Shown: positions 55,172 to 61,538 of the stretch, piece after piece | Layout of the letters: the number at the start of each line of letters is the position of its first letter | Numbering within the stretch: position 1 is the first letter of the stretch | Assembly (NCBI GenBank): GCA_965224085.1 | Contig: CBDCYI010000005.1 | Location: 1,344,001 to 1,408,000 of the forward strand | Reading direction: 5' to 3' | Length of the DNA stretch: 64,000 nt | Source of the DNA: Candidatus Marinacidobacterales bacterium | GTDB lineage: Bacteria; Acidobacteriota; Vicinamibacteria; Marinacidobacterales; SMYC01 | Notes under the pieces: generated by a model | Told to the model about the DNA's origin: nothing | Database searches by the model: none | The model's input: only the letters and a program-made list of their open reading frames with translations | Made by a program: the position numbers and the translations under genes

Positions 55172-57625
55172 ATGTTGCGGAGATGTCTGCTTTACGTGGT
55201 CGGTTTTGGCCTGGGGCTCGCGTCGGCGAGCGGTCAAACGCTACGTTATCCAACGCTGGGCGGGCAGATCCGCGTGGAGGGTCATCTGCTGCCCGCGGTA
55301 TCGACGGGACCGCTCGACCCCAGCTGGAGCCCCGACGGCGAATGGCTCGCGTTCTCCATGCGCGGTGACATCTGGAAGCTCCCGGCGGAAGGAGGAGAGG
55401 CGGTCGCGCTGACCGAGGCGCCTGGCTATCACTTCGAGCCGGTGTGGAGCCCAGACGGATCCCGCCTGGCCCTCACGGTGGACCTCGACGGCAATCTCGA
55501 TATTGCTCTGGTGCGCGCCGAAGGGGGATCGATCGAACGATTGACGCAGGATCCGCACGTGGATATCCAGCCCGCCTGGAGCCCAGATGGACAGAGCCTT
55601 TACTTCGTCAGCGGCCGGGCAGGGAGCCTGGACATCTACCGTCTCGACCTTGCGAGCGGCGAGAAGATCCCGGTCGTGAGCGGCCAGCGACACGATATTC
55701 AGCCTTCCGTCTCGCCGGACGGGCGGCGCCTCGCCTATATCGCTCCGGTCCAGGGTCGTATGGGAAGCGGCGGCATTTGGGTCAAGCGCTTGCCGGATGG
55801 AGAGCCCGAGCTCTTGCATTACGAGGAGACTAGCTTCCGAGCGAAGCCGACCTGGACACCGAACGGTAGCGCCCTCGTCTACGTTTCGGATGCCGCCGGC
55901 TCGAACGACATTGCCGTCGTTCCCGCGAGCGGTGGCAACTACGTGCGGCTCACGGAGCATCCGATGGATGAGTACGCCCCGGTCGTGAGCCCGGATGGCT
56001 CCCGGATCGCCTTCGTCTCTAACCGAACCGGACCGACACGCCTTCACACGATGGCCGCCGGAGGGGGCGCGGGAGGGGCCTGGAGCCCGGTGCCGATCGA
56101 ATCCCGTCGCCCCCGAGTTGCGCACGGACGGCTGCGGGGCGAGGTGCGCAGAGCGGACGGAGCGGTCACGCCGGGACGGATCCTGCTTCTCGCGAGCGAC
56201 GGGCGGGCCTACGCGCCCGACGAAGGCTTTCATCGGGTGAGCTCGGTGAACGAGATCCACTATTTCCACACGCGGGACGCCTTCGAAGTGGAGCTCCCCG
56301 CCGGCGAGGTGAGCGTCGAGGTCGTGCGCGGCTTCGAGTATCAGCCACGGCCGGTTCGGGTCGACGTCCCCGTGGGAGGCACGGCCGACGTCGTGCTCAC
56401 GCTCGAGCGGCTCGTCGACGCTCCGGCGAGAGGCTGGTTCTCGGGAGACAACCACGTGCACGATCTCCACCAGGGACGATTCGGTCTCACCCAGGAGGAT
56501 TTCTTCTACCAGCTCGTCGCCGACGACCTGCACGTCGCGAATGCTCTCATCCACATGGACGGCACCAAGCTGATGGGACGGTGGAGCGATCTGACCGGGG
56601 AGCCCTTTCGGCTGTCCAATGACGATTACATTCTGTTCTACACCCAGGAGTTCAGGGGCTCCTTCGGCCACGTGGGTCTTCTGGGTGTCCAGCGTTTCAT
56701 CATGCCGCTCATCGGTGGGACGCGGGGGACACCCTACGCCGCGGACGTGTTGAAGGTTCGCTATCTCGACGAGGTGCGCTCTCAGGGTGGTATCGGGGGT
56801 TTTCTCCATCCCTATAACGGCTCGGTGGATACGCCGGAGCAGGCGGCCTCCTCCGACATCCCTCTGCACGTCGCGCTCGGCAAAGGGGATTTCTTCGACG
56901 TCGTCTGTATCGCGTCTGACGAGCTCTCGTCCGCGAAAATGTATTACCGCTTTCTGAACAGCGGCTTCCGCATTCCCGCGACCGGCGGGACGGACAATTT
57001 CAGCAACGTGTGGCGCGACCCGTCCGGCGGAACGGCCCGCACGTACGCGCACCTGGACGGAAAGCTCGGATATCGCGAGTGGCTTTCTGCCGTGAAAGCC
57101 GGGCGCACCTTCGCGACCAACGGCCCACTGCTGTTGTTCGAGGTGGAAGGGAAAGGCCCGGGTGAGGAGATCCGCTTGAAGCCGGGGGATCCCTCTGGTC
57201 TGAGCGTCAAGGCGGAGCTCGTCTCGATTGTACCAATCGACAAGCTCGAGATCCTGGTCAACGGGGAAGTCGTCGAGACCTCGCGACCGAGCGGTGACGG
57301 CACGCGCATGGAGGTTTCCGTCTCGGTCGACGTTCCGGGAAGCGGCTGGGTCGCGGCGCGGGTCATCGGGTCGAAGCACCGCTACGTGGGCGATAACTAT
57401 CCCTTCGCCCAGACCTCTCCGGTCTACGTCGAGCGCGAAGGTGCGCCCTTCGCGTCGGCCGAAGACGCCCGCTTTCTGCTCGAGGTGGTGAACGAGCTGT
57501 GGCGTCGCGTGGAGACCCGGGACGCCTGGCGCAGCGCAACCGAAAAGGAGACTTACCTTCGGGCGGTAGAGGAAGCGCGTTCGGCGTACCAGCGCGCCAT
57601 CGATATTGCAGAGGGTACCCAATAA
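55172..57625 (+). CDS. PD40/TolB-like propeller fused to a CehA/McbA-like PHP metallohydrolase
   Basis: Repeated P.WSPDG; GWFSGDNHVH, GH, HP, GGTD, ARTY and GRTFATNGP. Confidence 0.85.
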   Translation: MLRRCLLYVVGFGLGLASASGQTLRYPTLGGQIRVEGHLLPAVSTGPLDPSWSPDGEWLAFSMRGDIWKLPAEGGEAVALTEAPGYHFEPVWSPDGSRLALTVDLDGNLDIALVRAEGGSIERLTQDPHVDIQPAWSPDGQSLYFVSGRAGSLDIYRLDLASGEKIPVVSGQRHDIQPSVSPDGRRLAYIAPVQGRMGSGGIWVKRLPDGEPELLHYEETSFRAKPTWTPNGSALVYVSDAAGSNDIAVVPASGGNYVRLTEHPMDEYAPVVSPDGSRIAFVSNRTGPTRLHTMAAGGGAGGAWSPVPIESRRPRVAHGRLRGEVRRADGAVTPGRILLLASDGRAYAPDEGFHRVSSVNEIHYFHTRDAFEVELPAGEVSVEVVRGFEYQPRPVRVDVPVGGTADVVLTLERLVDAPARGWFSGDNHVHDLHQGRFGLTQEDFFYQLVADDLHVANALIHMDGTKLMGRWSDLTGEPFRLSNDDYILFYTQEFRGSFGHVGLLGVQRFIMPLIGGTRGTPYAADVLKVRYLDEVRSQGGIGGFLHPYNGSVDTPEQAASSDIPLHVALGKGDFFDVVCIASDELSSAKMYYRFLNSGFRIPATGGTDNFSNVWRDPSGGTARTYAHLDGKLGYREWLSAVKAGRTFATNGPLLLFEVEGKGPGEEIRLKPGDPSGLSVKAELVSIVPIDKLEILVNGEVVETSRPSGDGTRMEVSVSVDVPGSGWVAARVIGSKHRYVGDNYPFAQTSPVYVEREGAPFASAEDARFLLEVVNELWRRVETRDAWRSATEKETYLRAVEEARSAYQRAIDIAEGTQ

Positions 57626-57674
57626 AGCCTTGTTCGGGGTACTTTCGACTGACACTCCCGGCCGAAGGCATTTT

Positions 57675-59063
57675 TCATGATATGGATTGATCGGGAACGA
57701 GGCTGAAGCCGAGTCGGGTAGCTTTGCGTCGGAGATTACTCAGGAGGCGTTGCTGGTATTGCCTTTCATAGGCGTCCTGACCGAGCTCAATGAACTCCTC
57801 TCCAGTCGCAAGCATGCGGAAGTAGATGGTCGCTATTTTACGGGCGGTAGCTGTGATGGCCTTTGGAGCACCTCGTCGCGATCGGATTCGTCGATAGAAA
57901 GCGCCGAGCGCGGTTTGGGTATTGCGGACAGCGCACGCGGCGAGGCGAAAGAGTTTTGCAGCACGACTGGAGCTCATTGGGGTGGCCCGGCGAAAGATTC
58001 GACCAGCGGACTCCTTATTATTCGGTGCGAGAGCTAGCCATGAGGTGAAGTGCTTGTCACTTTTCCACGGGCTCATGTCGCAACCGGTTTCTCCTACGAG
58101 CTGCAGAACGGCATAGCTACCTAAGCCGGGAACCCTGGTTAGGTCCACCCCCGTGAGTCCCAATAGAGACTCAGCGAGCGGAAAGCGCGGCCCGTTGCCG
58201 CTACGCGCTCGCCGTGTCCGTGGTTTCGGCTTAGGCCGAGCGTCCTGAGGCCGGGTCTCCAATTTGGACAGGCATCTCTCGATCCGCTTGTCACAGTCTT
58301 CCATTTTCTCTTGATAGAAATCGTACAACTCCACCGACTGTTGAAGAGCGAAAACATGCTCGCTCCGATAGTTACCTTCTAAGGCTTTCGCGATCGTGGC
58401 CTCATCGTTGTGGCAACGTTCATGCCTCAGTTTTGCTAGGTCACGAGGATCTCGCTCTCCTCTCAAGATCGCTCGGATGATCGCAAGGCCGGTGACTCCG
58501 GTCACGTCGCGCAGGACGTGTTGTAGCTGGAGCCCCATTTGGTTGAGCGCTTTGTGCATATGCTGAATGTGGCGAGCCGCTGACTCCACCAGCGAGCTTC
58601 GTTGGCGGGTGTATGCCCTTAGCTCGCAAATCGCCGATTCCGGCCGAAAGGTTTTTGGGAGTAGCCCGAATGTATGCAGCTGTTGCAGCCACTCCGCATC
58701 CGACACGTCTGACTTGCGCCCAGATACGTTTTTCACTTTGCGAGCATCGACCAGATAGACTTCAAATCCCTCGTCTTCCAACAACTCGTACAGTGGAATC
58801 CAATAAACTCCGGTCGACTCCATCGCCACCGTGCACACGCCGCACGCCTTCAGCCAATTGGCCAGCTCTCGCAGCGAGCATACAAAGCTCTGAAACGTGC
58901 GGACATGTTCGCCCTCAGGAGTGCGCCCCTTCGGGACTGCCGCCACGATTGACTCCGCTCCAATATCAATCCCTGCAGCATCTAGATTTACCGTGTCGAG
59001 CTCGTGCTCCAATTTTTTCCGTCTTGCTTGACGACTGCTTTTTGTCCTGACGCGACGTGCCAT
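57675..59063 (-). CDS. IS110 family transposase/recombinase
   Basis: DEDD residues in GIDIG, AMESTGVYW and KSDVSDA; C-terminal domain with ESAG serine and KAITATARK. Confidence 0.96.
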   Translation of the reverse strand: MARRVRTKSSRQARRKKLEHELDTVNLDAAGIDIGAESIVAAVPKGRTPEGEHVRTFQSFVCSLRELANWLKACGVCTVAMESTGVYWIPLYELLEDEGFEVYLVDARKVKNVSGRKSDVSDAEWLQQLHTFGLLPKTFRPESAICELRAYTRQRSSLVESAARHIQHMHKALNQMGLQLQHVLRDVTGVTGLAIIRAILRGERDPRDLAKLRHERCHNDEATIAKALEGNYRSEHVFALQQSVELYDFYQEKMEDCDKRIERCLSKLETRPQDARPKPKPRTRRARSGNGPRFPLAESLLGLTGVDLTRVPGLGSYAVLQLVGETGCDMSPWKSDKHFTSWLALAPNNKESAGRIFRRATPMSSSRAAKLFRLAACAVRNTQTALGAFYRRIRSRRGAPKAITATARKIATIYFRMLATGEEFIELGQDAYERQYQQRLLSNLRRKATRLGFSLVPDQSIS

Positions 59064-59094
59064 TTCTCGCTCCTTTCGGCGCAACCAGGAGAGA

Positions 59095-59290
59095 GGGGCG
59101 ATTCAAAACATTCTTTCGAACGGGGTCATGCCTCGCGACATGCCACCACGGATACTCCCGCTAACCCTCCAGACCTTGCTGTCAAACGGGCACTGAGCAC
59201 CATCGTACCTTCGGCCTTGACTCCCGGCTGCACTCGATCGGAGTCTACTTCCTCCCACAGATCTCAAAGGGTCAGTCTCCGATTACCTTC
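59095..59290 (-). ncRNA. Candidate IS110 bridge RNA (ends approximate)
   Basis: Two guide-TGGTG-hairpin-CCCGTT-guide modules; the guides match the insertion target and one element end. Confidence 0.75.
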
Positions 59291-59348
59291 GCCCGCCCGG
59301 GCGATGCCATTGCTGTCAAATTGAGCTGGTGACTGACAGAATGGTCCA

Positions 59349-60053
59349 ATGAAGACCGATGCGCCAAGCTACCACGGCTATCGATTTCCACCGGAAATCA
59401 TCAGCCACGCCGTCTGGCTCTACCACCGATTCTGCGTGAGCTTTCGAAACGTCGAAGAGCTGCTTGCTCAGCGAGGCATCACGGTTTCCTACGAAGCGAT
59501 CCGACTTTGGTGCATCAAGTTCGGGCCGGAATACGCTCGGCGACTGAAGCGTCGGCAGGGTCGCCTTGGTGACACGTGGCTCCTGGACGAGGTCTTCATA
59601 AAGATACAAGGCGAACGCCAATACCTCTGGCGCGCGGTAGACCAAGATGGTGATGTGATTGATATCCTCGTCCAGCCTCGCCGTGATCAGAAAGCCGCCA
59701 AACGATTCTTCCGCAAGCTGTTGAAAGGGCAAGGCCGTCCGCCCTGGCAGCTGGTCACCGACAAACTGAGAAGCTACAGCGCCGCTCACCGCGAGGTCAT
59801 GCCGTCCGTCGTCCACGACACTGACCAGTACAGAAACAACCTAGCCGAAGTCTCGCACGAACCGACGCGACAACGGGAACGACAGATGCGGAAGTTTAAA
59901 ACTCCTGGGCAGGCGCAACGATTCTTGACCGTGCATGGACTCGTGCAAAACCTCTTTCGCGTCGGACGGCATTTGTTGCAAGCGCATCATCATCGGGAGC
60001 TACGAGACCGCGCTTTCATCGTCTGGCAGGAGGTAACCTGTGCCGTCCGATGA
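59349..60053 (+). CDS. IS6 family DDE transposase
   Basis: YRFPPEII..AVWLY, LDEVFIKI, YLWRAVDQDG, VTDKL and NN.AE.SH. Confidence 0.96.
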   Translation: MKTDAPSYHGYRFPPEIISHAVWLYHRFCVSFRNVEELLAQRGITVSYEAIRLWCIKFGPEYARRLKRRQGRLGDTWLLDEVFIKIQGERQYLWRAVDQDGDVIDILVQPRRDQKAAKRFFRKLLKGQGRPPWQLVTDKLRSYSAAHREVMPSVVHDTDQYRNNLAEVSHEPTRQRERQMRKFKTPGQAQRFLTVHGLVQNLFRVGRHLLQAHHHRELRDRAFIVWQEVTCAVR

Positions 60054-60185
60054 GAGCAAAGGAAATCAGCTCGACGCAATAGGTTCGCTCGCTCAACGTC
60101 AACTTGACAATACCTGCGATAGCGCGATTTTCGAACTGCCCGGCGCGCGCCGTGATGAATAAAGGGAAGGGACGGGGAGAACACC

Positions 60186-61538
60186 CTACTCGGCGAGGTC
60201 GCGAAGCGTTTCGCGAACGGTCTCGAGGCCGAAGGTCTTTCCCAACGGCATGTCCGCGATCGTCGTCATCACGGACGCCGCCAAGTCGGCCTGGTCGTAC
60301 GGGGGTGGGTCCACGAGTTTGCCGTCGCGCCGAGCAGCCGCGACCTGTTCGAGAAATGCCAGATAGGCGTCCGCTTCGTCTTCGAGCTTGTATTGGGACT
60401 CGACGTGCTCGCGGGCGAAGCGGCCCATCGCGTGTCGAAGCTGCGGCTTCTCGTAGAACAGCTGGAGCGTCCGCGCGATCGCCTCGACTTCGGGGGGGCC
60501 GAGATCGATGCGAGCCACGGTGTGCTCGGGAAATTCGACGAACGGGCCCGTGTTCGAGACGAGGACGGGCTTTCCCATGCCGAGCGTCCGGATGAGCGTC
60601 CCCGACAGCTCGCCCGTCGACGGAAAGCGGAGGTTCACGACGACGTCGCAGGCCAAGATGTACAGATAGAACTTATCCATGGGCTGGCGGCCCGTGAGGA
60701 CGAGCTTGTCGCGGAAAGCTGCGGTGTCGGCGATCGTTTCTAGGTCGTAGCTGCTTTGCACTTCGCCGACGACGAGAAAACGCGCATCGGCACCCGTCTC
60801 CAAGAATCGCTTGAAGCCTAAGAGAGCGCGGTCGATGCGCTTCGAGCGCGCCGCGAGTCCGAAGGCCGCGACCAGGAACGCGTCGTCTGGAAGGCCGAGC
60901 ATGCGTCGCGCTTCCAAAGGGGTGTTGACCGGAAGTGGCGGTGGCGGGGCGTAGTGATGTGGGGCGCGGCCGATGAACTTTCCCACCGGTACCGAGCCGA
61001 AACGCTCTTCCAGCCAGCGCTGCATGAATCTCGTCAGGACCAAAACTCCGTAGCTGCGCTCGACCATCCGCTCGCAAAGGGGAAACTTCGACGTCAGGAG
61101 GTCGCTCCCGAGCGCGGCGGCGATCTGACGGCCGAGCGCGGCGCCTCGTTCGCCATAGGCGCGCTTCATCTCGGATACATAGAGCGCCGCGTCCCCGCGC
61201 TCGACCGACAAGCCGAGAAACAAGTGCTGGAGCACCAGGTCATGAAGCACGACCACACCCGGAAAGCGCAGCGCGGCGTTCAGCGCGTAGCGATGAAACG
61301 CGCTATTGCCGATTTGATAGAGATTGAGGTCAAACGCCTCGCGCGCGGCCACCTCTTCGTACTCGCGCGCATAGTGCCACTCGAAGCTCTCTAGGATTTC
61401 GGGGTTGTCAGGCTCGTAGTCTTCGACGAACAAGTGAATGTCGGCGCCGCCGTTCTGGAGGTACGGAAGAAGCTCCTCGCTATAGTCGGCGATGCCCGTC
61501 CCTTTCGGAGAGAGCGGACTCCAGAAGGCGAGCTTCAT
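60186..61538 (-). CDS. Glycosyltransferase family 4 protein
   Basis: SPLSP..TGIADYS, YQIGNS.FH, VVLHD and NLRFPSTGELSG. Confidence 0.9.
   Translation of the reverse strand: MKLAFWSPLSPKGTGIADYSEELLPYLQNGGADIHLFVEDYEPDNPEILESFEWHYAREYEEVAAREAFDLNLYQIGNSAFHRYALNAALRFPGVVVLHDLVLQHLFLGLSVERGDAALYVSEMKRAYGERGAALGRQIAAALGSDLLTSKFPLCERMVERSYGVLVLTRFMQRWLEERFGSVPVGKFIGRAPHHYAPPPPLPVNTPLEARRMLGLPDDAFLVAAFGLAARSKRIDRALLGFKRFLETGADARFLVVGEVQSSYDLETIADTAAFRDKLVLTGRQPMDKFYLYILACDVVVNLRFPSTGELSGTLIRTLGMGKPVLVSNTGPFVEFPEHTVARIDLGPPEVEAIARTLQLFYEKPQLRHAMGRFAREHVESQYKLEDEADAYLAFLEQVAAARRDGKLVDPPPYDQADLAASVMTTIADMPLGKTFGLETVRETLRDLAE

Follow-up and report, generated by a model that had tools for sequence, protein, structure and literature searches.

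The loop at positions 59172 to 59216 on the minus strand of the window, the whole 64,000-nt stretch of DNA that was analysed, is very probably the target-binding loop of a bridge (seek) RNA carried in the leader of an IS110-family element, as judged from sequence comparison. Bridge and seek RNAs have been known since 2024, and the system is of this known kind, RNA-guided IS110-family recombination, rather than a new principle. Tens of thousands of such RNAs have since been predicted, according to one preprint (bioRxiv 10.64898/2026.10.21.760802). The initial annotation had proposed a target loop whose guides spell out an IS6 inverted repeat, and this proposal is borne out by the covariation of the stems, by the covariation between guides and flanks, and by the position of every copy in the window genome at an IS6-type repeat. 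It is a clean natural case, in which a non-autonomous derivative and empty sites can be read beside guide, target and donor end in a single genome. As far as our limited searches show, the use of IS6-type repeat tips as a target and this combination of features are undescribed; a thin search of titles and abstracts returned no IS110-family element aimed at IS6-family repeats.

The IS110-family element and its IS6-family target

The IS110-family element extends from 57642 to 59312 on the minus strand (1671 bp if the core dinucleotide, AG on the minus strand and CT on the plus strand, is included once) and sits 4 nt within the terminal inverted repeat of an IS6-family element at 57638-60114. Both of its ends are fixed by junctions and empty sites in the window genome (12 contigs), where 10 left ends and 11 right ends were found, the shared part being 100% identical. 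All 10 left junctions read ..AANTTGAC-AG|CAATGG.., and all 11 right junctions read ..GTCGAA-AG|TACC with unrelated sequence beyond, while empty sites elsewhere in this genome show ..TTTGAC-AG-TACC.. on the minus strand, or GGTA-CT-GTCAAA on the plus strand. Insertion is site-specific, the tips are devoid of terminal inverted repeats, and only the core dinucleotide is common to both junctions. The element has a leader of 249 nt upstream of its gene and 33 nt after the stop codon. Near the left tip is a hairpin (59289-59304, minus strand; UCGCCCG GG CGGGCGA), and further inside a 7-bp subterminal inverted repeat, whose left arm GACTGAC (59271-59277, minus strand; GACUGAC as RNA) is the reverse complement of 57647-57653, the right arm being GTCAGTC on the minus strand. 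The placement of this repeat is asymmetric, 4 nt from the right core and 35 nt from the left tip, and a subterminal inverted repeat of 6-10 bp occurs at the same place in all nine related families. The adjoining IS6 repeat bears a perfect TTGACA (59315-59320, minus strand) pointing outward into the leader, but a hybrid promoter is doubtful since a -10-like hexamer is absent 17 nt downstream.

The gene at 57675-59063 (minus strand; ATG at 59063, AAAGGAG 7 nt upstream) encodes a protein of 462 aa matching PF01548 (88.3 bits, cut-off 29), PF02371 (34.7 bits, cut-off 21.3) and the NCBIfam model NF033542, 'IS110 family RNA-guided transposase' (259.4 bits, cut-off 140). In an alignment of 22 sequences, D33, E82, D119 and D122 are conserved in at least 95%, and the column of S352 holds Ser in 20 and Thr in two; these positions were matched to the residues of IS621 by their spacing and by the residue list given in PMC11208158. 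By its sequence, the product is an intact IS110 RNA-guided transposase with the DEDD and Ser residues. Assignment to the IS110 or the IS1111 group by BLASTP was discarded, since with one reference per group ISEc21 and IS4321 tie, each scoring 33.9 bits at about 26% identity across the N-domain. Just upstream of the gene, at 59064-59100, the hairpin CUCUCUCC ... GGAGCGAG is able to mask the ribosome-binding GGAG ahead of the start codon.

The host element measures 806 bp without its insert and has the IS6/IS240-type DDE pattern of about 800 bp with terminal inverted repeats. Its transposase gene lies at 59349-60053 on the plus strand (PF13610; NF033587, 210 bits against a cut-off of 125). On the same strand, its left inverted repeat is split into an outer GGTA (57638-57641), corresponding to the TACC that follows all 11 right junctions with variable sequence beyond, and an inner part, CT-GTCAAATTGAGCTGG.. 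(59313-59330), as compared with the intact right repeat and with empty ends. The right repeat at 60101-60114 (plus strand) reads GGTA-TT-GTCAA on its own strand; it is unoccupied and has a TT core, not CT. The two repeats, GGTACTGTCAAATTGAGC and GGTATTGTCAAGTTGACG, are identical at 14 of 18 positions. No 8-bp target duplication was seen at this IS6 copy (57630-57637, TTGTTCGG, versus 60115-60122, TGCGATAG).

A census of the window genome gave 134 matches to AANTTGACA[AG], of which 10 are followed by the full element and 20 by a mini element; the remainder comprise 10 empty ends with core AG and TACC, 45 empty ends with core AA and TACC, and 49 matches running into other sequence. Ends with a CT core are thus occupied in 30 of 40 cases and those with a TT core in none of 45, so that the CT-core and TT-core ends of the same IS6 elements offer a built-in natural control for core specificity. 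Full copies occur in at least seven different IS-end contexts and minis in at least four, and because these contexts differ the copies represent repeated insertions, although some of the 14 minis found in one context could have multiplied along with their IS6 host.

The mini element, absent from the window, occupies 20 IS6-type ends of the genome (19 of 66 bp and one of 53 bp). The 66-bp form joins the first 43 nt of the element to its last 23 nt (for example in L054-L057, at about 2548-2613 of each). It keeps the hairpin near the left tip, with a U-A pair replaced by C-G, and retains the subterminal repeat through a compensating change (GAGTGAC with (T)TCACTC).

Stems and guides of the probable target-binding loop

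The minus strand carries the loop string letter for letter as quoted in the initial annotation. Read in that direction, it consists of GGCC (59216-59213), G, the 5' guide AAGGUAC (59205-59211), GA, an inner stem-loop, the 3' guide UUUGACAG (59179-59186), CAA (59176-59178) and GGUC (59175-59172), the two outer tetranucleotides forming a closing stem. The inner stem-loop UGGUGCUCAGUGCCCG (59187-59202; UGG-U-GC ... GCCCG) is conserved in the clade. The CAA after the 3' guide equals the first three nucleotides of the left end of the element and resembles the handshake bases of IS621.

Folding had been suggested as a check, and its outcome was divided. Folded by itself, the leader sequence gives no signal above that of shuffles (z -0.44), whereas relatives returned the closing and inner stems. 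The relatives were gathered because the single-sequence fold was uninformative and because an Rfam 15 search of 57000-60500, at E values up to 1, matched nothing. Protein matches were obtained in 33 of the 401 genomes searched within the phylum, the window genome among them, and further copies were taken from multi-copy genomes. The leaders of these relatives (30-55% protein identity) have a common layout, in which a closing stem encloses, in this order, CG with six variable bases and a C, two linker bases, a hairpin between UGGUG and CCCG, eight bases of which the last are AG, and two or three further bases.

Alignment of 22 of the 23 parsed loops (L039 was omitted as its parse looked off, and L029, which belongs to an unpublished genome, was unused) allowed these stems to be assessed. 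With no structure supplied, RNAalifold returned both the closing stem and the inner stem UGG-U-GC/GC-CCG. Over nine pairs, 99% of 198 cells are paired and five of the nine pairs have changed on both sides; in the inner stem (columns 21-26 and 43-47) 100% of cells are paired, with both sides changed in two pairs. The covariation score was 0.377 against 0.197 after shuffling, and none of 500 shuffles reached it, a figure that is not a probability because several rows are kin (L024/L027, L025/L026, L035-L038). Shifting the partner columns by one reduces pairing to 45-54%. The G-U pairs (5/22 and 4/22 in the closing stem, and one invariant U-G) are compatible only with the transposase-sense strand. 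The existence of a closing stem and an inner stem around the two guides is hence supported by covariation.

The 3' guide corresponds to the left flank TTTGAC followed by the core AG, and had been described as the exact reverse complement of core and flank on the plus strand. This holds at 8/8 positions in the window, where its complement is CTGTCAAA, and at 7/8 for ends with C or G in the eighth place. In the 5' guide, GGUAC equals the plus-strand GGTA with the first core base C and is complementary to G-TACC on the minus strand, covering the first five nucleotides of the IS6 repeat. The GGTAC shared with the target had also been pointed out, together with two mismatches ascribed to variable flank; indeed, the two A's of this guide face bases outside the IS6 repeat that vary over the 11 right junctions (cc, tc, gt, ca, at, tg, gt, ct, gt, tt, ct).

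Within the window alone, a search of 260 nt gave 8/8 for 13 of 1000 shuffled guides. The guide matches exceed chance because homology with 21 other elements fixes where the guides lie and because cognate matches lie far above non-cognate ones. The check put forward in the initial annotation, guide-target covariation across homologues, turned out in its favour for both guides. For the 3' guide, a match of at least 7/8 was found in 11 of 18 cognate loci versus 5 of 306 non-cognate pairs. This comparison covered 18 loci, the guide being searched in 70 nt located 95-165 nt upstream; short contigs (L015, L040), loci with an unparsed loop (L014, L028, L034, L042) and those with a 9-nt guide, unparsed for this purpose (L019, L021, L025), were left out. 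The dinucleotide that follows the 3' guide is the same as that opening the predicted left end in 9/18 cognate loci versus 39/306 non-cognate pairs. For the 5' guide, the four bases beside the core C are the reverse complement of the first four of the right flank in only four of eight cognate loci (the window element, L016, L022 and L026) versus none of 56 non-cognate pairs, L027 having been dropped since a further copy of the element makes up its right flank. All of these counts overstate independence, as some of the loci are kin (L024/L027, L025/L026, L035-L038).

Two pairs of close relatives illustrate how guides and flanks change together. L025 and L026 have nearly the same scaffold, but their guides differ (CAAUGCAAG versus ACUAGGAG) and their left flanks differ correspondingly (CCATGCAAG versus GCTAGGAG). 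L027 and L024, whose scaffolds are nearly identical as well, differ by one guide base (AAUCUCAG versus AAUCUUAG), and most of their flanks differ likewise. On this comparison, both pairs are cases of natural retargeting.

Two other explanations of the leader were considered, and each appears very unlikely beside a target-binding loop. According to the first, the matches would be a relic, left when part of the left junction (TTTGACAG-CAA) was copied into the leader, with the site chosen by the protein or by the subterminal repeats alone. The RNA string UUUGACAGCAA does equal 11 nt of the left junction, and the insertion repeats of some relatives look like their own end-to-end junction. However, the positional rule also holds in families with unrelated flanks, the guides are framed by covarying stems, and the flank on the opposite side is matched by a second guide, located in the other loop strand, something that a copied junction would not yield.

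The leader structure might instead be a mere regulator of transposase expression, acting by attenuation or by masking of the ribosome site and making no contact with DNA. Such a role would fit the hairpin able to cover the GGAG before the start codon, as well as the earlier idea, cited in PMC11208160, that small RNAs modulate the expression of IS110-family elements. We nevertheless give this explanation little credence, for it leaves unexplained why bases of the loop, rather than of the stem, vary together with the flanks, and the masking hairpin lies downstream of both loops.

Least credible of all is an IS621-like order, with UUUGACAG as the 5' strand, a 3' strand downstream (GGAGUAUC) and UUCGAAAG read likewise, which would agree with the long guide of IS621, equal to the left flank and described as the 5' strand (PMC11208160), and with the 5/8 expected bases matched by GGAGUAUC, but is countered by right-flank matches of 5'-strand bases in relatives and by the covarying closing stem GGCC/GGUC, which places UUUGACAG on the 3' strand and rules it out as the 5' one.

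The second loop, expression and spread

Downstream of the target-binding loop, a putative donor-binding loop (59092-59170, minus strand) has the same UGGUG/CCCG scaffold. It comprises a closing helix (GGAGGG/CCCUCU and GCG/CGC), a 5' strand GAGUAUC-CG (59157-59149), the UGGUG..CCCG hairpin and a long 3' strand. The closing helix was recognized by eye only, in 12 of 13 loci. Duplex energy, a weak test, averaged -17.6 kcal/mol for cognate and -14.7 kcal/mol (sd 4.2) for non-cognate strands; the cognate strand came first in 4 of 13 loci, and the window copy ranks 10 of 13.

The 3' guide of this second loop, UUCGAAAG (59113-59120, minus strand), equals the right end TCGAA with the core AG at 7/8 positions, and 11 of 12 related loci show 7-8/8 agreement with the sequence just before the right junction, although non-cognate pairs also often match because right ends are alike across families. 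By the rule of IS621, the 5' strand should read as the left tip in reverse complement, with a C added; it did so in none of 12 families, so that the donor half of the model is incomplete. This strand is instead identical, at 7/7 positions, to a same-strand segment of the left end (positions 24-34) in three families (L022, L023 and L024/L027), the segment lying between the hairpin and the left arm of the subterminal repeat. Such identity was found in 4 of 12 cognate and 2 of 132 non-cognate comparisons, both of the latter being L024-L027 cross pairs, and the window element reaches 4/7. The suggestion that RNA, target and donor are all readable in the window therefore stands for the RNA, the target and the right-end half of the donor (7/8), while the left tip is unmatched.

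Taken together, these features suggest the following course of events. The RNA would be read from the minus strand and bound by the DEDD/Ser recombinase of the element. Its 3' guide UUUGACAG would pair with CTGTCAAA on the plus strand of an IS6-type terminal repeat and its 5' guide GGUAC with GTACC on the minus strand, while the second loop would hold the right end of the element itself through UUCGAAAG. Strand exchange at the CT core would then place the element 4 nt inside the repeat in a constant orientation, and the copies would all lie at the same spot because the guides spell the tip of IS6-family elements. By analogy with IS621, ISEc21 and ISEc11, we infer that such an RNA is produced, that the recombinase binds it, and that the site is picked by pairing and not by the protein alone.

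Four sponge metatranscriptome runs from one study hold 33-43% of the words of the element. In all four, contigs from the RNA libraries cover the target-binding loop (59051-59246, 58939-59227, 59157-59325 and 59077-59235), and the contig at 59157-59325 continues into the flank of another copy of the element. These contigs have a depth of 2-4, are possibly derived from DNA, and show neither RNA ends nor strand; the portion 58304-58675 is without such contigs in all four runs.

The element is also found in G421 (L064, L073), a genome from the same order but outside the family of the window genome, with a leader and element 99-100% identical to those in the window genome, at least six copies and the same type of site. 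This near-identity suggests recent transfer. The mini element is nearly identical in seven further related genomes, at the same site. More distant relatives (48-55% protein identity) are carried by plasmids of Bradyrhizobium, Citrobacter, Enterobacter and Klebsiella. That of the Citrobacter freundii plasmid NZ_OW849259.1 (L075:2180-2540; 48% identity) shares the loop scaffold, and its 3' guide UAAAAAAAC matches its own left flank TTAAAAAAC, the core being apparently AA; by look only, this flank resembles the end of the first reading frame of an IS3-type element. In another group of relatives (L024, L046-L048, L027, L050-L052, L025 and L049, from genomes G015, G393 and G236), the insertion repeats resemble their own right-end/left-end junction over 12-19 nt, and one copy precedes a solitary left-end fragment.

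Comparison with known RNA-guided IS110-family systems

The features described above allow a tentative proposal, which we hold to be possible but rather doubtful, that the clade represents a third layout of RNA-guided IS110-family elements. It would combine a leader-encoded two-loop RNA similar to that of IS621, the guide order of IS1111 along with its long subterminal repeats, and a donor loop in which the 5' strand is directed not at the tip but at an internal left-end stretch next to the subterminal repeat. If so, the donor would be recognized as a structured junction, and the element and its 66-bp passenger-less derivative would be specialized parasites of IS6-type ends, spreading between bacterial families in sponges.

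The likeness to IS621 is extensive. The RNA belongs to a long left end that precedes the gene of a DEDD/Ser recombinase, and an internal loop exposes two guides that each pair with a different strand, one on each side of a CT core. Core bases are part of both, with C at the end of the 5' guide and AG at the end of the 3' guide. The two or three bases past the 3' guide match the donor, as does the handshake guide that directly follows the 3' guide in the description of IS621 (PMC11208158), and a putative second loop would serve the element's own ends, of which the right one is matched. A long left end with a short right end is also the pattern of the IS110 group, according to a figure legend (PMC11208160, Extended Data Fig. 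10).

Several differences set the two apart. As described in PMC11208160 and PMC13626964, the 5' strand of IS621 equals the left (LE-side) flank and core on the sense strand, and its 3' strand is complementary to the core and right flank; the right target guide is accordingly given as the 3' strand, pairing with the top strand (PMC11208160). Here, it is the 3' strand that equals the LE-side flank on the sense strand, and the recombination frame is therefore turned round relative to the genes. The initial annotation had noted such a reversal, which agrees with these published descriptions of IS621. The long guide is here the 3' one, the subterminal repeat has 7 bp versus 2-3 bp, and the protein has 462 aa versus the 315-330 aa reported for the IS621 branch (PMC11187229). 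The donor loop differs too, in that its 5' strand leaves the tip of the element unread, which hints at donor recognition outside the IS621 model. From an engineering viewpoint, the element offers a compact scaffold, with its conserved UGGUG/CCCG inner stem, and a long 3' guide.

ISEc21, an IS110-type element, likewise takes its guide RNA from an upstream non-coding region, and its natural target also belongs to a different insertion sequence, being a conserved portion of the transposase genes of the IS3 family (PMC11187229). This target lies inside a gene and not in a terminal repeat, and the guide order is reported in the same source as opposite, with the top-strand match located 3' of the bottom-strand match. 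The guides of ISEc21 were sought in locus L062 as a control for this order and were not decoded there, the order being that given in PMC11187229.

The IS1111-type RNAs, whose guide order is reported as the reverse of that of ISEc21 (PMC11187229), provide the closest parallel in strand order. In the seekRNA elements of this type (ISEc11, ISPa11, ISKpn4; IS4321/IS5075), as here, the top-strand match lies 5' of the bottom-strand match (PMC11187229). Long subterminal inverted repeats are shared as well (7-17 bp in the group, 7 bp here), and the terminal repeats of other transposons are named in a paper title as the target of IS4321/IS5075. The IS1111-type RNA, in contrast, is located downstream of the gene, in a long right end, whereas the RNA described here lies upstream, in a long left end, and transposases of that type have 330-350 aa versus 462 aa. 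The order of the guide strands is thus independent of the location of the RNA gene, a point of interest for the relationship between the IS110 and IS1111 layouts.
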